DNA of 64,000 bases from an uncultured Alphaproteobacteria bacterium (GTDB lineage: Bacteria; Pseudomonadota; Alphaproteobacteria; Rs-D84). Of this stretch, positions 15,521-23,511 are shown one piece after another. A program made the translations under genes and the position numbers. The notes under the pieces were generated by a model. The model had not been told where the DNA came from, did not search any database, and saw only the letters and a program-made list of their open reading frames with translations. The stretch's first letter is position 1. Each line of letters starts with the position of its first letter. Where the stretch lies: NCBI GenBank assembly GCA_944389265.1, contig CALXLS010000003.1, forward strand, positions 57,657 to 121,656. Direction: 5' to 3'.

Positions 15521-16061
15521 TTTCTAAACCCTTTCTAAATTTAACAAAAACTATATTATCACGAGATTTACCATGCAGAATAAAAGAATGCCGTGACACA
15601 CTCTCTTTTTCAAACTCTGCTCTTTCAGCAACCGCCTGTGAAGCACGGTTTTCTGTATCCACAAGAATTTCTATTCTATCCAAACCCAAAGTATTAAATC
15701 CGAAATCACTTAATGCTTTAACAGCATTAGTCATTATCCCGCGACCGTTATAATCTTTTGATAACCAGTATCCTATTTCACCAATTTTATGTGTTTCTGA
15801 TATAATTCCCAACCCGACACTACCAATAATTTTACCACCTAAAACAATGTAATAACTTCCATTATTAGTTTTAGATGCTTTATTTAAATGGTCATACATA
15901 TCTTCTGGTTTATTTGATTTTTCAACCCATATAAGCCACTTACCAAGATATTCACGTTGCGAATCAACAATATTAAACAAGTACTTTGCCACATCAAACG
16001 AAGGTTCTACTTTTTCAAGATTAAAACCGTCACAATTTATGACTTTTGGAAACTCAATCAT
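15513..16061 (-). CDS. GNAT-family N-acetyltransferase (RimJ/RimL-like)
   Basis: 182 aa. IGEIGYWLSKDYNGRGIMTNAVKAL..F matches the acetyl-CoA-binding core typical of RimJ/L-type GNATs. Confidence 0.8.
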   Translation of the reverse strand: MIEFPKVINCDGFNLEKVEPSFDVAKYLFNIVDSQREYLGKWLIWVEKSNKPEDMYDHLNKASKTNNGSYYIVLGGKIIGSVGLGIISETHKIGEIGYWLSKDYNGRGIMTNAVKALSDFGFNTLGLDRIEILVDTENRASQAVAERAEFEKESVSRHSFILHGKSRDNIVFVKFRKGLENA

Positions 16062-16106
16062 TTATATTTCCTTGTATTCTTATTTTTCGAATTTTATACT
16101 AATTAT

Positions 16107-16739
16107 ATGGAAAAACAAGAAATAAGAACATTTGGTCGCAGGCACGGGAAAAAATTATCCACACGTCAACAATGGCTGCTGGATAATCTTTTGCCAACCC
16201 TATTACCTAAAAACGAATCGGAAAGCGAACTAAATATCCTAGAAATAGGCTTTGGTGCTGGCGAACATCTTCGTGAACTTGCAGAAAACAATCCAAACAG
16301 AATCGTGATTGGTGCAGAACCATTTATTAATGGCGTAGCATCATTGTTATCTGCGATTACAGATGAAACAAATTCTGTTCGCCCAGAATATAAAAACATT
16401 CGTATTTTTGCGGATGACGTTCGTGATTTTCTAAGGAATTCCGATTCGAAATTCGAACAAATTTGGATACTACATCCTGACCCATGGCCGAAAGCGAAAC
16501 ATGAAAAACGCAGATTATTACATGCAGAATTTATCAAAAACCTTTCTAATCATTTAACAGGAAATGGCGAGATAATAATAGGCACAGACCATTGGGAATA
16601 TTATGATTGGATAATAGAAGAATTAAAAAAGACAAATTTAAAGGTACAAACACCAGACCTACCAACCATAGAGACTAGGTATCAACACAAAAACAAGGCG
16701 GGTACAACCCACCCAAAATATCTAGTAATAAAAAATTAA
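16107..16739 (+). CDS. trmB: tRNA (guanine-N7)-methyltransferase
   Basis: Start reset to the ATG at 16107 (MEKQEIRTFGRRHGKKLS). LEIGFGAGEH SAM motif and HPDPWPKAKHEKRRL. The track's upstream extension overlaps the GNAT gene on the other strand. Confidence 0.9.
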   Translation: MEKQEIRTFGRRHGKKLSTRQQWLLDNLLPTLLPKNESESELNILEIGFGAGEHLRELAENNPNRIVIGAEPFINGVASLLSAITDETNSVRPEYKNIRIFADDVRDFLRNSDSKFEQIWILHPDPWPKAKHEKRRLLHAEFIKNLSNHLTGNGEIIIGTDHWEYYDWIIEELKKTNLKVQTPDLPTIETRYQHKNKAGTTHPKYLVIKN

Positions 16740-17410
16740 GCATTGATAAAAAATCTTATTTTATCAAACAAATCTGGTTGCATTGATTGCACCAAACGCT
16801 TAGTCTGCTCTATCCGCAAAGGATTTTCACCCAAAGCAAAATGTAAATTAAAATCGTAATTTTTATTCCAAGACTCAAGTGCAGAATATATACGTCCAAC
16901 GAAATCAGACCTATCTCCATCATCCATAGGGAAGGCAAGTATTAGCCCAGTTGCATGAATTTTACTTAAATTCTTCCAAACATCATCCCAATCAAAATGT
17001 CCTATATCTGCAATATTAATACCGACATATAAATCTTTATTAAAGAACAAGTCATCTCTAATTAGATATAGTTGAGATACAAAAGAATCTAAATCTTTAA
17101 ATCTAATAAATACCTGCGCGCCGTCAGCACCCTGCTTTAGGACCGTATTAATATTTATCGTTAATTCAGACAAAGTATCAACAGAATCAGCAGAACCATC
17201 TAAATAAAACCGCGCAAATATCTTTATTTTTTTATTTTCCAGCCATGGCCATATGACAGGAACAGATTTAGGCGCCACAGAAACGAAACCCAAATTTTGT
17301 TCAATGGCACATTCTGCTGAATACGCTAAATCTGTTTGCTCTGCGACAGATTTTATCCATAAAGCAAACCCTTTAAAATCATCACCAATAAAGAAATCTG
17401 TATTTATCAT
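16736..17410 (-). CDS. Hypothetical protein (224 aa), family not recognised
   Basis: Long ORF, divergent from the 17454 cassette, with a 4-nt convergent overlap with trmB. Only a faint DeoC/TIM-barrel-like pattern (GFVSVAPKSVPVI...IKIFARF...GADGAQVFI). Confidence 0.5.
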   Translation of the reverse strand: MINTDFFIGDDFKGFALWIKSVAEQTDLAYSAECAIEQNLGFVSVAPKSVPVIWPWLENKKIKIFARFYLDGSADSVDTLSELTININTVLKQGADGAQVFIRFKDLDSFVSQLYLIRDDLFFNKDLYVGINIADIGHFDWDDVWKNLSKIHATGLILAFPMDDGDRSDFVGRIYSALESWNKNYDFNLHFALGENPLRIEQTKRLVQSMQPDLFDKIRFFINA

Positions 17411-17435
17411 AACTCTTTTTACTTTATCATAAATA

Positions 17436-17444
17436 TGATATAAT
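17436..17444 (+). promoter_or_regulatory. Possible extended -10 element (TGaTATAAT) for the 17454 cassette
   Basis: TGATATAAT ends 9 nt before the ATG at 17454 and no Shine-Dalgarno lies between them, implying a near-leaderless transcript. Pattern match only. Confidence 0.3.
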
Positions 17445-17453
17445 CAAAGACAA

Positions 17454-18374
17454 ATGAAAAACAAAATAGACAATATCTTACTTGGAATATTGTGGTTAAT
17501 TGCCGTCACTCTGGGGGCAAGTTTTTGGTTTAACACAATATTCGGGTTTAATATTTTTTCATTACAGCACTGGGAATATTTATCTTATTTACAAGCAGCA
17601 AAATCCCCTATAGATTCAAAGTTTTATGTATCTCTTGTTATTACAATATTCGTAATGCTATTTGGTTTATATACCATTGTACGACCAAAAATACGTAAAA
17701 TAAAACTCCCCAAAATACATACCACATCTAATAATGCGCCTATTAAATCAGAAAAAAAGGATACGCCGATTGATGATGCATCAACATTAGACATTCTACC
17801 TGCAGAGATGCCAATCATCCCCCATCAACAACCTATTCCTAGTGTTTCTGTTTCACGTCCACCACGTTTAAACATACCTACTTTTAACCCCACAATTCAC
17901 AGCACAGAAAACGGTGCTATGTCGCTGTCACATCTATCCACAACAAATTTGCGTCCAGCGCAAGATTATTCTGAAATCAAAGAAATATTTTCTAATGCGG
18001 GTTATATTGTCAAGCAAGACCCACGCATCAATGGTATAAAGACCAACCTATTTGCAATAGGTACAAATGAAAATCTATGGATTGGTGCGGTTGGAATAAA
18101 AACAACAGACTTACGTGGGATGATAGACAAACTATCTCAAGTATTTTCTGACACATTAGACGATATATATATAAATATAAATGGTTTTATAATAGACGCA
18201 CCAGATGCATCTACATCAGAATTCCAAGATATATTAATGTTTAAAAATATTGAAGAATTAAAAAGTTATATTCAGAACGTACCTAATCCGGCTATTCCTG
18301 ACGATGACGATGGTAATTTTGACGCATACTCCCAATACATTGACACCGTTATTAATTACATAGGGAAAATTTAA
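17454..18374 (+). CDS. Membrane protein with P/Q-rich linker and C-terminal globular domain (unknown family)
   Basis: 306 aa. Two N-terminal hydrophobic helices, a basic stretch (RPKIRKIKLPK), a P/Q/S-rich linker and a ~140-aa C-terminal domain. Stop overlaps the next start (TAATG). Confidence 0.6.
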   Translation: MKNKIDNILLGILWLIAVTLGASFWFNTIFGFNIFSLQHWEYLSYLQAAKSPIDSKFYVSLVITIFVMLFGLYTIVRPKIRKIKLPKIHTTSNNAPIKSEKKDTPIDDASTLDILPAEMPIIPHQQPIPSVSVSRPPRLNIPTFNPTIHSTENGAMSLSHLSTTNLRPAQDYSEIKEIFSNAGYIVKQDPRINGIKTNLFAIGTNENLWIGAVGIKTTDLRGMIDKLSQVFSDTLDDIYININGFIIDAPDASTSEFQDILMFKNIEELKSYIQNVPNPAIPDDDDGNFDAYSQYIDTVINYIGKI

Positions 18375-18877
18375 TGCAATTAAGTAAAGAATCCGCAGAA
18401 CAAAAATTAGCCGACATGCGAATGGAAGATATGCCAATAATAAGCATGGCTCCTATTCCTGCGCAAGTACCTTCTGATTGGTTTCAGCAATATAAAAAAC
18501 TCTGCCACGAATTTATAACAAGTTTAACAGATTCTGTTGAAGAACTTGCTTTTATGAACCTAAGCCAAGAAGAATTTATGGCATTAATAATGGGCAGGAA
18601 AATTCCTGCTAACCTATCTATAAGGTTCAGAATACCATTGGTATGGGGCGGTAAATTATCGATAGACAACCTATTTATGTGCAAAACATTTCCGCACTCA
18701 CATAACCTAGACTTATTTATAATAGACCAATATGGTAACGAAACGATATGGTTACCAAATCCAGTAAAAAAGATTTATGTTCCGGCCCACACAGCATCTG
18801 GTGGGGACGGTGGAAACGCGACAGAAGATAGACTATCACAACTAGCAGCCCAGATATCTGCTGAACGTGACATGTAA
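18374..18877 (+). CDS. Hypothetical protein with HNH / His-Me-finger-like motif
   Basis: 167 aa. RFRIPLVWGGKLSIDNLFMCKTFPHSHN has HNH-like spacing (h-h-P-x3-GG-x5-N-L...H-x-H), but Arg sits where the first His is expected. Confidence 0.55.
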   Translation: MQLSKESAEQKLADMRMEDMPIISMAPIPAQVPSDWFQQYKKLCHEFITSLTDSVEELAFMNLSQEEFMALIMGRKIPANLSIRFRIPLVWGGKLSIDNLFMCKTFPHSHNLDLFIIDQYGNETIWLPNPVKKIYVPAHTASGGDGGNATEDRLSQLAAQISAERDM

Positions 18878-18890
18878 AAAGAGAACGCTT

Positions 18891-19325
18891 ATGACCCAAG
18901 AAGAATTTTTATCCGGCATCAAGAAACAAGGCGCAACATTTGCCCCTGCAACAAACAACCAAGAAATAAGTTTATCTAACATGTCATTACAACAAATGTG
19001 TGCAGCGATGTTGCCGGCTTTTTTAATAAAAATATACGAAAAGACCGGTGGAATAAATCTTGGTAACGGCCATATTTTTGGTCCATCTGAATACACAATT
19101 GGTTCCAATTTTCCTGTTCCAAGCATAACAGAAATAAACAAATCTGTTATAAAACACGCACGTATGAGGGGTAAAACAGTATTCGGTCGAAATGATTTGT
19201 TTTGGTTTGCAGTGGATTCTTTTGGTACATGCTACATGTTAGATAATTTATCTCTAAATCCATTACGCAAATACGACGACCCTTACAAGGCATTGACAGA
19301 TTGCTTAATGGCTGGTAAAAATTAA
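18891..19325 (+). CDS. SUKH / SMI1-KNR4-like protein (putative immunity-type fold)
   Basis: LPAFLIKIYEKTGGINLGNGHIFG and FGRNDLFWFAVDSFGTCYML fit the SMI1_KNR4 pattern. An alternative start at 18867 overlaps the previous stop. Confidence 0.55.
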   Translation: MTQEEFLSGIKKQGATFAPATNNQEISLSNMSLQQMCAAMLPAFLIKIYEKTGGINLGNGHIFGPSEYTIGSNFPVPSITEINKSVIKHARMRGKTVFGRNDLFWFAVDSFGTCYMLDNLSLNPLRKYDDPYKALTDCLMAGKN

Positions 19326-19329
19326 AATT

Positions 19330-19536
19330 ATGAAAAAAATATCAGTTTCTTTATCAGGTCATCAAACAAGTATTTCTATGGAATCAGAATTCATAGAATG
19401 TTTACATGATATCGCAAAAGCAGAAAACAAATCTATTGCATCAATTATCACAGAAATAGATTCAAATCGAACACCTGATACCAACTTATCATCTGCAATC
19501 AGAATATGGATTCTAAATAAAATAAAAAATAAATAA
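19330..19536 (+). CDS. Ribbon-helix-helix protein (RHH_4 family)
   Basis: 68 aa. KISVSLSGHQTSISMESEFIECLHDIA...SIASIITEID...NLSSAIRIWIL matches the alphaproteobacterial RHH_4 pattern (GH.TS..LE..F...L..iA; NLSSAlR). Confidence 0.75.
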   Translation: MKKISVSLSGHQTSISMESEFIECLHDIAKAENKSIASIITEIDSNRTPDTNLSSAIRIWILNKIKNK

Positions 19537-19566
19537 TCCGCAAATTGCGACTTATTTATTTTTCTT

Positions 19567-21576
19567 TTAATTCTTTTTTCTAATTCCATAAATCAAAACA
19601 ATAGAAAATAACAATATAACAATCATCCAACCGTCACGTCCAATCAGATGATATAAAGTATCATGCGCCCCCCACACAAAACCGTCCAAAGTCCCAGCCT
19701 GCCCTATCGACAGCGAAGATATGATTTCACCATCAGAAGAAACAAACGCACTGATACCAGAATAATTAGCTCTAATAATAGGCAGGCCAGATTCAATAGC
19801 ATATCTACGCACCATATCAAGATGCTGATATGAACCTGGTGTTTTTCCAAACCAAGTATCATTTGTTATATTTATAATTGCGTCTATATGCATGTTTTCC
19901 TGGGGTTGCAAAGAATCAGAAAAAATAATTTCATAACATATTGCGGGAACGAAAGTAAAGTTTTTACTTTCCAAATTAATATTTATTATTTCTGGTCCTT
20001 TGCCCGCAGTTAATTGTCCAGGTGTAGGTATTATATCTCCTAGTGGTCTATATTCACCGAACGGCACCAAGTGCGATTTACTGTATATATTTTTTATCGT
20101 ACCTTCTGAAGAGATAACTAACATTGAATTATACATTTTACCATTATCATATGATGTTGCGCCCATTACAACATTAGAATTTAAAGCATTTGCGACAGGC
20201 ATATCGTCACCAGGCACAACGACAAAAGGATATGAAGTTTCAGGGAAAATAATTAAATCGGGTTTATTGGGTGCAGCCGCGAGCATTATCAAATTCTTTA
20301 TATTTTCTTCTGCGTTTTTTAATGCTTCTTCTCTAGAATGAGTTGCTTTCTGTACTGCACTTTGTGCAGGTTGCACAATTCTTACAATCGGCGATACATT
20401 GGTATCATTCTGAGATTTTTTTATATTATTATATCCTGCAAAAATTCCCCCAATTAATAAAACACTAAAAACGCCAAGGAGCCCCCAGCAGCATTTCGAT
20501 TTTTTATCAGTCAAGACTTCCACTATTGACGCAATCAATCCGATTATAATAAAAGTAAGTCCCAATGCCCCCCATACAGACATAGAATTTGCCAATGCGG
20601 GGAAAGGCATAGTTATATTAGCGATTGGATTCCAAGGGAAACCTGTTAAAAGCCATTCACGCAACCATAAAACAAGCGTCCAACTTACTGCGAACAAAAT
20701 CACTCTATGCACCGGAATCGTGCACATACGAGAGATTACAACAAAAGGAATTGCAAAAACAATTCCACCTAAAACACCTATTCCTATTAACCCCGGCACA
20801 GTCCACACAGCAAATTGCGCAGTCAATTCTGGTACGACATAAATAGAATGCAGCACCCACCAAAACATAGACATAGCATATGCAGCACTAAAAGGAAGCA
20901 CACGCAAAAAATCTTTTAACAAACTGTCTTTCTTATCAGCAGCGCGAACTATTATTTTATACGCCAGCGCAATCGCCAAAATTGTCGCCCACCACATATA
21001 AAAAGGTGCAAAACCTAAAGACGCAAATCCACCCAATAAAAATAAAATCAAGTATTGTTCTAAACTATTTTTACGGATTTTTAGTTTTTTTAACCAAGAA
21101 AAAATTTTTCCACCCGGACAGCACGAAGAATCGTTGCAGATAGGCAAATCCGCTTCATACGGATTTTTTATACCCAATTTTTCTAAAACACTTATTTCCT
21201 TTGTTTCCATTACAATTGCATCATCATCCTTTATATGGTCATACCCCAACAGGTGCAACACGCCATGGACTACCATATGTGCAGTATGTTCTTCTACTGT
21301 AATATTCAAATCTTTTGCTTCACGCATAACAGTATCTAGGGATATATAAATATCACCTAACAAAATATCATCACCTAGTTCAAACGACAGTACATTAGTT
21401 GGTTTATCAATATTTCTATATTGACGATTTAGTTCATGTATTTCTTTATCATCAGTTAAAATTATAGACACTTCTGATTTTTTATGTGTTGTACCTACAA
21501 CTACATTTGCAACAGCAGAAAAATCTATATTATAACGCTTCCACCTAGAATCTTTGTAATCCACATAAACATTCAT
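19567..21576 (-). CDS. Fusion protein: YbeY endoribonuclease (N-terminal) plus apolipoprotein N-acyltransferase Lnt (C-terminal)
   Basis: One uninterrupted frame. Residues ~1-150 carry HGVLHLLGYDH (YbeY zinc motif). After the linker ADLPICNDSSCCPGG come polytopic TM helices and a CN-hydrolase domain (FPETSYP..., ICYEIIF). I prefer the ATG at 21576; the track starts at the TTG at 21585. Confidence 0.85.
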   Translation of the reverse strand: MNVYVDYKDSRWKRYNIDFSAVANVVVGTTHKKSEVSIILTDDKEIHELNRQYRNIDKPTNVLSFELGDDILLGDIYISLDTVMREAKDLNITVEEHTAHMVVHGVLHLLGYDHIKDDDAIVMETKEISVLEKLGIKNPYEADLPICNDSSCCPGGKIFSWLKKLKIRKNSLEQYLILFLLGGFASLGFAPFYMWWATILAIALAYKIIVRAADKKDSLLKDFLRVLPFSAAYAMSMFWWVLHSIYVVPELTAQFAVWTVPGLIGIGVLGGIVFAIPFVVISRMCTIPVHRVILFAVSWTLVLWLREWLLTGFPWNPIANITMPFPALANSMSVWGALGLTFIIIGLIASIVEVLTDKKSKCCWGLLGVFSVLLIGGIFAGYNNIKKSQNDTNVSPIVRIVQPAQSAVQKATHSREEALKNAEENIKNLIMLAAAPNKPDLIIFPETSYPFVVVPGDDMPVANALNSNVVMGATSYDNGKMYNSMLVISSEGTIKNIYSKSHLVPFGEYRPLGDIIPTPGQLTAGKGPEIININLESKNFTFVPAICYEIIFSDSLQPQENMHIDAIINITNDTWFGKTPGSYQHLDMVRRYAIESGLPIIRANYSGISAFVSSDGEIISSLSIGQAGTLDGFVWGAHDTLYHLIGRDGWMIVILLFSIVLIYGIRKKN

Positions 21577-21588
21577 AACGCACAACCT

Positions 21589-23511
21589 TTATCCCAAATA
21601 ATTTTCATCAAAAACAAACGTATGAAAATCTAAATTTTTATTATTTTGTTTTATATTGTTTGCCGCTTGATTAAAAGCCAAAGTTTTAGATTTTTTTAAT
21701 TTCTTTTCAATTCTTGATACATCAGATTGTACTTTTTTATTACCGTTTACTACTGCTAGTTTATAGTTAGCCAAAGCACGTTCCAAATCACCCAACTGTT
21801 CGTACGCGACACCAGCATTATATTGTGCTGCCGCATATTGACTTTTATCGCCTATATCGAACAGAACCTTTCGTGCTTCTTTAACGGCTTCTTTATATTT
21901 TCCAAGTTTATTATAAACAGCCGCTAAATCATTATGCAACAAAGCATTTCCAGGATACTGCTTTATCATATTTTCAAAGCCACTGGCGGCATTTTTATAA
22001 TCACCCTGCTTAAACGCGGATAGCGATTTTTTATACATTTCATCATATCCGATTACATAAGTTTTTACTTCTACATTCTCGCGTTTTTTTATAATTTGTG
22101 CGAACTCACGATTACCAAGTTCACATTTACCTGCCTCACAAAAAGCAAGAACATCTTTAGGCAGATGATCTTTTACTTTTTTCCAATATTTTAAAGATTC
22201 GCCTTTTTCATTAACTGGATTTTTCAACCACTTTCTAAACTCTTCGTAGGTCTTTTTATTTACATGCCTATCATCTATATCACCAGTAAAGAAAGCGCTT
22301 TTCTTTTCTCCCATTAATTTAAAGAACTCATACATACCATTTGACGGGCAATCTAATAACATCTGTGGAGTAACGTCACCTGTAAACAAACCTGCCTCTA
22401 GCCAGCGGCGCCAATAGAGCCCTCTTCCACCTGCCAAGAAACCGCCAAGTTTATCTGCAGTAGAATTTTTATTTTCGTTTCCCAACCACGCTTTTCCAAA
22501 ACTTGTTGGATCTGTAATAGGATATTTTTTGAATATATTTTTTACCAAAGAATCAGGAACGGCATAACCGTATTCATCATACAATTTTCTTAATTCCCTA
22601 AATCTTTTTTGATGATTTCTATCAGATTTATTTTCTATCAACTTTGAATAAGCATTATAAATAATAGAACTCATTCCCAATGCTTCATTGGTATTATTAA
22701 TATTTATATTATCACTCGCAACATCATAGCAATATAGAACAAAATAAGTTTCACCATCTTCAAGATGCCAACGTGCCAATTCATATGCTTCATCTGTGGT
22801 TATAGGTTTTGTATCCATGGTGACGCGGGTACCATCTTTCAACATAGTAGACCCAAACCCGATTGTTGGTATCCGCTTTGAATCTAGATACGGGGTATGT
22901 AACCCTGTAGTTGTATCGATATGAACTCCCTCTTTAGCTATCAAATCCGCTATCAAGAACGGGGTTACTGGGCGCATTTTATTTAAGAACGCTGCATAAG
23001 TTCCACGTGTATTTTCTTCTACTTCTTTATCTATTTTCCATTCTTTGTATGACGCAACCGCATCTTTTCCTTCGTTTACTGCGACTTTACCACCACCTAT
23101 AACTGCAGCCAGCATAAAATACCACATTATATGCGCGGATAGATTAGGATATTTTTTTGCAAACGATTGCCATTTTTTAGGGTTACCTTTTTTATTTTTT
23201 TCAATTTTTATTTCCCCAAGTTTTTTTTCTAACTTACGCAAAAAAGCATTATCTAGGGCAATCCACCTAGTCAGTGTTAATAAAAATTGTGTACCACCTG
23301 CTGCAAGCCACCCTGCACCTTTTGCAGAACTAAGAGCAAATTTTTCTAAATCATCTTTTACATCAGCATAGTCGTCTTTTTCACCTGCTTCATTTTTAAT
23401 TTTTCTTTGTTCATCAACATAATCCACTGGATTTGTTTTTTCTATAGCCTGGCGCAATTTTTTTGCCAGCAATTCTGGTTTTGCGACAAATTTTCTAAAC
23501 TTTTCAGTCAT
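21589..23511 (-). CDS. Large membrane-associated protein with GH24 lysozyme-like domain and C-terminal TPR repeats
   Basis: 640 aa. Hydrophobic segments near residues 65-90 and 125-145. IAKEGVH...YLDSKRIPTIGFGST resembles the T4/lambda-type lysozyme E...D-x5-T-IG-G motif. About 3 TPRs near the C-terminus (YKNAASGFENMIKQYPGN..., YKEAVKEARKVL..., LERALANYKLAV). Confidence 0.7.
   Translation of the reverse strand: MTEKFRKFVAKPELLAKKLRQAIEKTNPVDYVDEQRKIKNEAGEKDDYADVKDDLEKFALSSAKGAGWLAAGGTQFLLTLTRWIALDNAFLRKLEKKLGEIKIEKNKKGNPKKWQSFAKKYPNLSAHIMWYFMLAAVIGGGKVAVNEGKDAVASYKEWKIDKEVEENTRGTYAAFLNKMRPVTPFLIADLIAKEGVHIDTTTGLHTPYLDSKRIPTIGFGSTMLKDGTRVTMDTKPITTDEAYELARWHLEDGETYFVLYCYDVASDNININNTNEALGMSSIIYNAYSKLIENKSDRNHQKRFRELRKLYDEYGYAVPDSLVKNIFKKYPITDPTSFGKAWLGNENKNSTADKLGGFLAGGRGLYWRRWLEAGLFTGDVTPQMLLDCPSNGMYEFFKLMGEKKSAFFTGDIDDRHVNKKTYEEFRKWLKNPVNEKGESLKYWKKVKDHLPKDVLAFCEAGKCELGNREFAQIIKKRENVEVKTYVIGYDEMYKKSLSAFKQGDYKNAASGFENMIKQYPGNALLHNDLAAVYNKLGKYKEAVKEARKVLFDIGDKSQYAAAQYNAGVAYEQLGDLERALANYKLAVVNGNKKVQSDVSRIEKKLKKSKTLAFNQAANNIKQNNKNLDFHTFVFDENYLG

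Follow-up and report, generated by a model that had tools for sequence, protein, structure and literature searches.

A 64,000-nucleotide stretch of contig CALXLS010000003.1 from an uncultured alphaproteobacterium, hereafter the window, carries a cassette of four consecutive plus-strand open reading frames (ORF1 to ORF4) at 17454-19536. On balance, we consider this cassette to be probably an exapted, nuclease-dead toxin/immunity pair held in a membrane-associated complex and ancestrally tied to a type IV coupling protein. We would class it as a domesticated toxin/immunity pair, for which catalytically dead His-Me finger domains provide precedents in logic only. A preliminary description of this DNA, made from its letters alone, had matched the combination of these genes with a membrane protein and a ribbon-helix-helix (RHH) protein to no known locus. 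We likewise found no description of the module, and nothing similar in architecture, in the literature searched. The four genes and their predicted products are as follows:

17454-18374, plus strand: ORF1, 306 amino acids (aa); predicted two-transmembrane (TM) inner-membrane hairpin, linker, and cytoplasmic C-terminal domain
18374-18877, plus strand: ORF2, 167 aa; predicted nuclease-dead YhhZ-type HNH (His-Me finger) domain
18891-19325, plus strand: ORF3, 144 aa; SUKH (SMI1/KNR4, YrhA-like) protein, presumed binding partner of ORF2
19330-19536, plus strand: ORF4, 68 aa; RHH protein of the RHH_4 family, likely regulator of the cassette

ORF2 is encoded in 208 species-representative genomes, and 80 loci of ~14.5 kb each were retrieved for comparison. 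Its 579 homologs are 165-170 aa long and 60-98% identical to it. Scans of ORF1, ORF2, and ORF3 against Pfam, NCBIfam, PADLOC, and PHROGs gave no match above threshold, and Pfam HNH (PF01844) did not match the window ORF2. Residues 1-60 of this 167-aa protein matched no Pfam or NCBIfam model, in line with the earlier remark that it lacks a trafficking domain. Sequence-profile searches of the Protein Data Bank (PDB) with alignments of ORF2, ORF3, the C-terminal domain of ORF1, or the divergent neighboring gene orf224 returned chance-level matches only. In an AlphaFold2 (AF2) model of ORF2 with a predicted local distance difference test (pLDDT) of 84, residues 81-118 form a beta-beta-alpha core (strand 81-85, strand 100-104, and helix 105-118). 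HNH domains topped both the PDB and the BFVD lists in Foldseek, none of them significantly (E at least 0.13, TM-score ~0.2). When ORF2 was compared by hhalign with HNH segments from PDB entries, IRFRIPLVWGGKLSIDNL fell on DHIVPRTDGGSNRHENL (P 0.006, probability 6%); in this alignment, LSIRFRIPLVWGGKLSIDNLFMC was paired with ELDHIVPRTDGGSNRHENLAIT in the HNH register, with a phenylalanine where the catalytic histidine stands.

A profile search of 1.84 billion representatives yielded only 73 relatives of ORF2, some of which carry long PQ-rich N-terminal extensions. The window ORF2 matches a distant relative from another gut alphaproteobacterial lineage (L090:6001-6609) with an E value of 4e-12 in phmmer and 7e-18 in a profile search, and this relative served as a tblastn query against plasmids (7.3 Gb) and phages. 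It matched the C-terminal domain of a Bacillus subtilis LXG toxin of the type VII secretion system (T7SS; E 2e-12) and SPbeta-like phages. The same query recovered "HNH endonuclease" genes on Pantoea, Enterobacter, Klebsiella, and Salmonella plasmids and a Listeria pre-toxin-TG protein. The plasmid matches came from conjugative records in 433 of 458 cases, which hints at an older tie of the YhhZ-type toxin to conjugation machinery. A profile of the ORF2 superfamily scored the LXG toxin at 60.6 bits, the plasmid HNH proteins at 56.5-57.5 bits, and Escherichia coli YhhZ at 52.9 bits; even the profile restricted to the lineage of the window, Candidatus Enterousia, gave 25.6 bits for the Enterobacter hormaechei HNH protein. 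The toxin homologs in turn match Pfam HNH (27.1 bits, cut-off 21.4), and YhhZ constitutes group 32 in the published classification of His-Me fingers (Jablonska et al. 2017; PMC5714182). From these profile comparisons, we conclude that ORF2 descends from a YhhZ-type HNH toxin domain.

For the active site, 81 Enterousia-lineage sequences were aligned with ~85 representatives and three toxins. Position 85, at the end of the first strand, holds the general-base histidine in all three toxins; it is F, L, or M in 81/81 lineage members and histidine in none of the ~85 representatives. The metal-binding histidine of position 84 is replaced by R in 81/81, and that of the helix, at position 109, by S or A in 81/81, while 55 and 50 distant representatives, respectively, have histidine at these sites. 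The toxins read VHHK...PYH, and the window ORF2 has R84, F85, and S109. The superfamily keeps Pro, Gly, Asn, Gln, and Phe residues invariant or nearly so; none of its acidic or basic residues is invariant, and we found no alternative catalytic set among the invariant positions. Because both the general-base and the metal-binding histidines are lost, we conclude from the alignment that ORF2 cannot be a His-Me nuclease. The HNH-like string noticed in the preliminary description is therefore an HNH-type motif in the right register and homologous to YhhZ-type toxins, yet without the histidines, and the suggestion of a working toxin/immunity or toxin-antitoxin (TA) module does not hold, as all three active-site histidines are replaced in every lineage member.

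Beyond the core, ORF2 ends in a tail, GGDGGNATxDRLSQ (residues 143-156), which the toxins lack and which does not vary within the lineage. In the AF2 model its pLDDT is 47-58. Because it is invariant yet modeled with low confidence, the tail is probably disordered and may be a peptide that folds on a partner.

The AF2 model of ORF3 (pLDDT 90) was matched by Foldseek to four SUKH structures, namely YobK (2prv; E 1.7e-4, TM-score 0.68), BF1740 (3d5p), 2icg, and 2pag, with a probability of 1.0 and TM-scores of 0.58-0.69. The SUKH pattern that had been read from the letters thus corresponds to a SUKH fold. At the sequence level, ORF3 scored 19.2 bits against the YrhA model NF038335 (cut-off 55), and SMI1_KNR4 gave weak, sub-threshold matches in 7 of 24 ORF3 homologs, with no Pfam match passing. 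The homolog L090:6612-7073 passed the YrhA cut-off with 66.6 bits; since the window protein misses it, ORF3 is better described as a divergent relative of YrhA than as a model-defined member. Consistently, the Enterousia profile of ORF3 matches B. subtilis YrhA, and Bacillus YrhA matches SMI1_KNR4. As judged from these profiles, we conclude that ORF3 descends from the cognate YrhA-type SUKH immunity protein.

In each of the YhhZ, LXG, and plasmid HNH loci inspected, the next gene encodes a YrhA-family SUKH protein. The E. coli K-12 yhhZ-yrhA locus holds the same toxin-type/YrhA pair, with yrhA split by IS1 in this strain. ORF3 lies directly downstream of ORF2 in 80/80 loci and in all distant loci. 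Because the toxin relatives of ORF2 each precede a YrhA-family gene, the ORF2-ORF3 pair is, on sequence grounds, homologous to a known couple of toxin and immunity protein. The earlier idea of a nuclease-derived domain next to an immunity-type partner is thereby supported at the level of cognate families, by profile scores as well as by YrhA neighbors. As a separate observation, the E. hormaechei plasmid pSHV12-1301491 (L099; 76212-77789) carries intact YhhZ-type HNH and YrhA genes within its transfer region. Plasmids of this type are MOBH/MPF_F conjugative, and the HNH/YrhA pair adjoins traG_N, a lytic transglycosylase gene, and a DsbC-like gene.

The window is 99% identical to a contig of a metagenome-assembled genome (MAG; L007) and belongs to Candidatus Enterousia in the order Rs-D84 of gut Alphaproteobacteria, bacteria with genomes of <1 Mb and a presumed obligate life as symbionts or parasites on other cells (PMC12306168). 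All 80 loci read orf224 on the minus strand, ORF1-ORF2-ORF3-ORF4 on the plus strand, and a ybeY-lnt fusion on the minus strand, so that the set sits between trmB and ybeY-lnt; the cassette is single-copy in these species genomes, with 60-74% identity throughout, and the genes around it in the window are entirely housekeeping. ORF2 and ORF3 each form >500 homolog clusters of constant length. Median identity to the window is 66% for ORF2, 67% for ORF4, 56% for ORF3, and 46% for ORF1 (78 species), as compared to 80% for gltX, 70% for trmB, and 59% for ybeY-lnt. The GC content of the cassette is 0.348 versus 0.367 for the window. Pairwise distances of all four genes correlated (r 0.6-0.8) with those of gltX plus rarA, taken as a stand-in for the species tree; among the partial correlations, that between ORF2 and ORF3 was the highest (0.58). 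The fixed slot and order, the flank-like GC content, and the divergence that tracks housekeeping genes indicate a core operon that has been passed on vertically within the Rs-D84/Candidatus Enterousia lineage, rather than an island.

These data speak against the earlier view of an inserted or accessory cassette in the slot next to trmB; as to the question raised there of whether the four genes co-occur in related genomes, they do so in the 80 loci, and the set also recurs in other lineages (see below). A mobile island was considered and rejected, with GC content like that of the flanks, a constant slot in 80/80 loci, and neither integrase nor repeats at the borders. A defense system was rejected as well, as there was no PADLOC match and the cassette is universal and syntenic.

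The packing of the genes is equally constant. The four near-contiguous plus-strand ORFs reported in the preliminary description were confirmed in all coordinates, including the TAATG stop/start overlap of ORF1 and ORF2 at 18372-18376 and the start of ORF4 4 nucleotides (nt) past the ORF3 stop. For ORF3, two starts had been left open, a GTG at 18867 that overlaps the ORF2 stop and an ATG at 18891, 13 nt past it. More than 500 homologs are 144 aa long and begin with MT..EF, so that the ATG stands as the start and the GTG is unused. Among the 80 species-level genomes, the 1-nt ORF1/ORF2 overlap is kept in 65, ORF3 and ORF4 are mostly separated by 1-5 nt, and 47 of 77 loci have a 43-nt spacer between orf224 and ORF1. 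Because these junction spacings recur across species, the tight packing is not a matter of chance.

Outside Enterousia, the module is linked to a VirD4-type gene, a tie that the preliminary description had not noted. In six loci from other gut alphaproteobacterial lineages (L087-L092), the ORF2-like gene directly follows a VirD4/TraG-family gene and precedes a SUKH homolog of 140-153 aa. One or two genes ahead of VirD4 encode proteins built like ORF1, in which a TM hairpin at the N terminus is followed by a low-complexity linker and a domain at the C terminus. With profiles made from the 80 Enterousia loci, these distant genes were recovered at E values of 1e-13 to 1e-19 for ORF2 and 1e-7 to 1e-11 for ORF3, and the ORF4 profile recovered distant RHH_4 genes (E 2e-22 and 8e-10). 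In 24 further metagenome loci, every contig that was long enough reads ORF1-like (one or two copies), VirD4, ORF2-like, SUKH; these loci were found with a narrower alignment, as a broad one failed for want of any sufficiently conserved stretch. Two loci have the set without VirD4. L093 shows the exact order of the window, including RHH_4, and in L094 the ORF1-like, ORF2-like, and SUKH genes are followed by exbB/exbD. RHH_4 genes accompany the module in L093, at the same position, and in L090, where the gene lies upstream. Altogether, this arrangement of ORF1-like, ORF2-like, and SUKH genes is shared by at least six other lineages, whose flanking genes are quite different. No virB genes adjoin any of these loci.

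Two observations concern single genes in these relatives. In L092, the PQ-rich N-terminal half of the ORF2-like gene has been split off in the public call (L092:7425-8489 and L092:7690-8010), and the continuous ORF spans ~355 aa, as it does in L088; the PQ-rich extension begins with MWDWSG in several lineages and is absent from the Enterousia form. The shorter gene found just upstream of virD4 in some loci (L088:2650-3516; ~4052-5023 in L104, L105, and L122; L109:1-615) is a partial VirD4 duplicate that comprises the N-terminal TM region and a middle segment.

ORF1 had been described as a bitopic membrane protein with a PQ-linker, and neither part of this description survived. Hydropathy reveals two hydrophobic segments, at ~8-30 and ~57-77, and basic residues are found at the N terminus and after the second segment. 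Because of these two segments and the basic residues that flank them, ORF1 is predicted from its sequence to be a membrane hairpin and not bitopic, with both ends, the linker, and the C-terminal domain on the cytoplasmic side. The linker is rich in P, S, T, and I, with 12 prolines in 80 residues. A C-terminal helix with the motif FDAYSxYIDTV is conserved. The profile of 80 ORF1 homologs matched the products of genes that immediately precede VirD4 or ORF2-like genes in the distant loci (E 1e-6 to 1e-11). In the relatives of ORF1, we found weak matches to NERD (Pfam PF08378; E 0.012) that stay below or near the cut-off, with 2 of 12 members matching individually (best E 2.6e-4). A Pfam scan of the window ORF1 gave no NERD match; this protein is without the central NERD segment, which L083 and the distant forms retain, and no conserved D...ExK was seen by eye. 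The C-terminal domain looks like a reduced or degenerate NERD-like (nuclease-related) domain.

L083, from a MAG of the termite-gut type (WRCA01000003.1), is the one Enterousia-type locus in which the ORF1 homolog retains a central segment of ~35 aa (…DPHTGDMTAFEGGDSKWASNNGDFISPV…) missing from the window and from most relatives, and this homolog bridges the short form of ORF1 and the longer NERD-like domain of the VirD4-associated proteins. The possibility that ORF1 is a VirD4 remnant was rejected, as ORF1-like and VirD4 genes co-occur in relatives and tblastn found no similarity between them.

ORF4 matched Pfam PF13467 (RHH_4) with 74.5 bits against a cut-off of 25 (E 7e-21, profile positions 2-66 of 67), in agreement with the RHH_4 pattern noted before, and it is present in 79/80 loci. 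Public gene calls on identical contigs have a 75-aa minus-strand ORF at 19362-19589 in its place. Given the Pfam match and the conservation in 79/80 loci, the plus-strand reading is the right one and the public call is on the wrong strand, as far as the sequence tells. Three further features lie next to the four genes:

16736-17410, minus strand: orf224, 224 aa; divergent from ORF1 across a 43-nt spacer, membership in the module uncertain
17421-17444: control region with back-to-back extended -10 elements
19538-19550: short GC hairpin with T-runs behind it, located where ORF4 and ybeY-lnt converge

Within the control region, TGATATAAT at 17436-17444 on the plus strand lies 9 nt upstream of the ORF1 ATG, without a Shine-Dalgarno (SD) sequence, and TGATAAAGT at 17429-17421 on the minus strand lies 10 nt upstream of the orf224 ATG. 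The first of these had been pointed out in the preliminary description and is widespread, with TGnTAnAAT found 8-10 nt upstream of the ORF1 ATG in 76/80 loci and an SD-like motif in 0/80; the minus-strand element is likewise kept in 76/80. The 43-nt spacer is conserved across species whose proteins are just 46-66% identical. A generic -35/-10 promoter scan did not flag the region 17421-17444. Because the two elements sit 9 and 10 nt from the ATGs, the mRNAs of the cassette and of orf224 are likely to be leaderless or nearly so. Together, the two elements form an imperfect palindrome, ATCATA-AA-TATGAT, at 17426-17439, which may be a candidate operator for ORF4. Its arms change across species in a way that is compensatory only in part; for this reason, the operator role is put forward as a hypothesis, and a strictly palindromic operator was not upheld.

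We propose the following picture of how the cassette might work. ORF2 and ORF3 would have retained the mutual binding of a toxin and its immunity protein, and the pair would act as a non-catalytic adaptor or scaffold. The ORF1 hairpin may hold this pair at the cytoplasmic face of the inner membrane, with the conserved ORF2 tail serving as a docking peptide. ORF4 would bind DNA, most simply in the -10/palindrome region, and so control the leaderless-type divergent promoters. Because ORF1-like, ORF2-like, and SUKH genes bracket VirD4 in relatives, the module most likely began as, or may still be, a set of accessories or substrate receptors for a VirD4-type coupling ATPase; Enterousia would keep the set without a VirD4 gene at the locus. 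The earlier label "envelope-linked" stays plausible.

Several points weigh against this proposal. The direct fold evidence for an HNH domain in ORF2 is weak when taken alone (Foldseek E at least 0.13; hhalign 6%). The NERD assignment of ORF1 is sub-threshold and absent for the window protein itself. Binding of ORF2 to ORF3, to ORF1, or to DNA is inferred only, and the mirror-tree signal between ORF2 and ORF3 (0.58) barely exceeds that of ORF2 with ybeY-lnt (0.48). The palindrome, being kept only in part across species, may just reflect two promoters. No VirD4 was found in the 64-kb window by tblastn or in the 80 loci of ~14.5 kb, a result that applies to the locus only; if Enterousia has no VirD4 or type IV secretion elsewhere either, the link to a coupling protein would be purely historical and the present role open.

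As a bolder and tentative extension, which we regard as possible rather than probable, the cassette may represent a hitherto undescribed machine, in which a dead toxin/immunity pair, a membrane NERD-like protein, and an RHH protein were recruited as the fixed partner set of a VirD4-type ATPase. In the obligately partner-dependent Enterousia, the ATPase gene would have been lost from the locus and the set kept, now with an essential membrane-proximal role, such as nucleic-acid handling or contacts with partner cells.

Other explanations fit less well, mainly in view of the dead active site, the constant synteny, the stronger conservation of ORF2 as compared to ORF3, and a gene set that recurs in unrelated contexts. 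ORF2 might be a type IV effector-like cargo with ORF3 as its chaperone or immunity protein, exported into partner cells by a VirD4 and a channel encoded elsewhere that recognize a signal in its C-terminal tail, and binding nucleic acid without cutting it. Type IV secretion signals are usually C-terminal, and the ORF2 tail is C-terminal, conserved, and modeled with low confidence; moreover, the ORF2-like genes of relatives stand directly after VirD4, and the related active toxins are mostly encoded on conjugative plasmids (433/458), inside transfer regions. The Rs-D84 bacteria are also thought to depend on other cells (PMC12306168). However, VirD4 and VirB genes are absent from the window and from the 80 loci, the published survey of Rs-D84 genomes never uses the word "secretion," and the form without VirD4 is tightly coupled to ORF1 by the stop/start overlap. 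Effectors tend to evolve fast, in contrast to ORF2, which matches trmB in conservation, and we regard this explanation as unlikely. It is quite unlikely that ORF3 serves as an orphan-type immunity protein against YhhZ- or LXG-type HNH toxins injected by gut competitors, with the dead ORF2 retained as its stabilizer or regulator. ORF3 does belong to the YrhA/SUKH immunity lineage, and gut Enterobacteriaceae and Bacillus commonly carry active toxins of the cognate type. Immunity genes are normally variable and patchy in distribution, in contrast to ORF3, which is fixed in 80/80 genomes. In addition, the dead toxin is more conserved than the immunity homolog (66% versus 56% median identity) and has gained an invariant tail that would be unexpected for a passive remnant, and the ties to ORF1, and to VirD4 in relatives, would be left unexplained.

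An active TA or polymorphic toxin/immunity module, in which ORF2 would be toxic through a non-canonical site, ORF3 would neutralize it, and ORF4 would autoregulate the operon, is very unlikely, even though the homologs are real toxin/immunity pairs and both the order of toxin, immunity, and small DNA-binding protein and the translational coupling resemble TA or tripartite TA loci. The general-base and both metal histidines are replaced in all lineage members with no alternative invariant catalytic residue, there is neither a trafficking domain nor a PADLOC match, and in this lineage of reduced genomes the cassette occurs as a single, syntenic copy in 80/80 species. Finally, we consider it highly improbable that the four genes form no functional unit and that their close spacing merely reflects the compaction of a <1 Mb genome. 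The genome is indeed compact, and many neighboring housekeeping genes also abut or overlap; however, the set keeps its order in at least six further lineages with quite different flanking genes, and RHH_4 is found again in two of them.

Among known systems, E. coli YhhZ-YrhA is related to ORF2-ORF3 by sequence. The ORF2 family profile aligns to YhhZ residues 254-362 (52.9 bits), the two proteins have the motif PxN..V(H/R)(H/F)(K/R)xPxxxGGxxxxxNLxLI...P in common, and in both cases the downstream gene encodes a YrhA-family SUKH protein. In contrast to ORF2, which reads IRFR...PHS, has no delivery domain, and bears the extra conserved tail, YhhZ combines VHHK...PYH with an N-terminal Hcp delivery domain. 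Furthermore, YhhZ-YrhA is an accessory and often decayed locus, while the cassette is a fixed core operon. The ORF2 superfamily has its best sequence match in the Bacillus LXG toxins of the T7SS (60.6 bits; tblastn E 2e-12), and for the YobL-YobK pair, the structure of YobK (2prv) is the best structural match of ORF3. The LXG proteins differ in having a 200-aa LXG secretion domain and intact histidines, and they are polymorphic and carried on prophages or plasmids.

Coupling-protein accessories and toxins exported by VirD4 systems offer more remote comparisons. The RHH proteins TrwA and TraM bridge DNA to the coupling proteins TrwB and TraD, and IcmS-IcmW-LvgA are adaptors on DotL. Similarly, the relatives of the cassette have genes for small cytoplasmic proteins, an RHH protein among them, next to the gene of a VirD4-family ATPase, and the VirD4 homologs there have acidic C-terminal tails, as in TraD. 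However, there is no sequence relationship to these accessories, no relaxase or oriT was seen, and the window lacks a coupling protein. The X-Tfe toxins of Xanthomonas and Stenotrophomonas are active enzymes recognized through a C-terminal XVIPCD domain, and X-Tfi are their immunity proteins. Like these, the module in relatives ties a toxin-type domain and an immunity gene genetically to VirD4; in contrast, the ORF2-like proteins are nuclease-dead and have another tail, and killing machinery is not evident here. By analogy, ORF2 likely works like the dead His-Me fingers of Smad MH1 and of the nuclease-like domain of ENPP1-3, which lack the catalytic histidine and are kept for binding (PMC5714182). 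The likeness is one of logic only, as the latter belong to unrelated eukaryotic lineages and have no immunity-type partner.

Toxin/immunity pairs are normally fast-evolving, dispensable weapons. Here, a disarmed pair is found under housekeeping-level constraint in a lineage with genomes of <1 Mb, and because it has been kept in this way despite genome shrinkage, the pair appears to have acquired a function that the cell cannot lose. The wiring to VirD4 in sister lineages provides a testable route to the role of chromosomal, seemingly orphan coupling proteins and to the origin of secretion-ATPase adaptors. The analysis also gives names and a testable hypothesis to four conserved "hypothetical" genes of an uncultured group thought to live off other gut cells.

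Turning to the surroundings of the cassette, orf224 adjoins ORF1 in 77/80 species loci and is absent from the distant loci. It had no match in Pfam, NCBIfam, PADLOC, PHROGs, or PDB sequences, and its invariant residues are W54, W56, E58, G94, G97, and LFF121-123. At the other end, the GC hairpin at 19538-19550 is the probable end of the cassette transcription unit. It is terminator-like on the minus strand, with 5 pairs, while the plus strand forms just 4 pairs followed by CTTATTTATTTTT, so that it is weak as a terminator on the strand of the cassette itself.

The convergent ybeY-lnt fusion (19567-21585, minus strand) is a single ORF of 669-672 aa, present in nearly all 80 related loci, with the Pfam domains YbeY at 28-137, LNT_N at 185-348, and CN_hydrolase at 401-632. 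As ybeY encodes an endoribonuclease and lnt an apolipoprotein N-acyltransferase, the joining of a cytoplasmic RNase to a polytopic membrane enzyme is unusual. The next gene on the same strand (21589-23511) encodes a 640-aa protein with a weak phage-lysozyme-like segment at 206-257 (E 3e-4) and C-terminal TPR repeats, conserved in many, not all, related loci. Last, the longest ORF of trmB (15957-16739, plus strand; 260 aa) has a TTG start and overlaps a divergent GNAT gene, and public calls and homologs place the start at the ATG at 16107 (210 aa).

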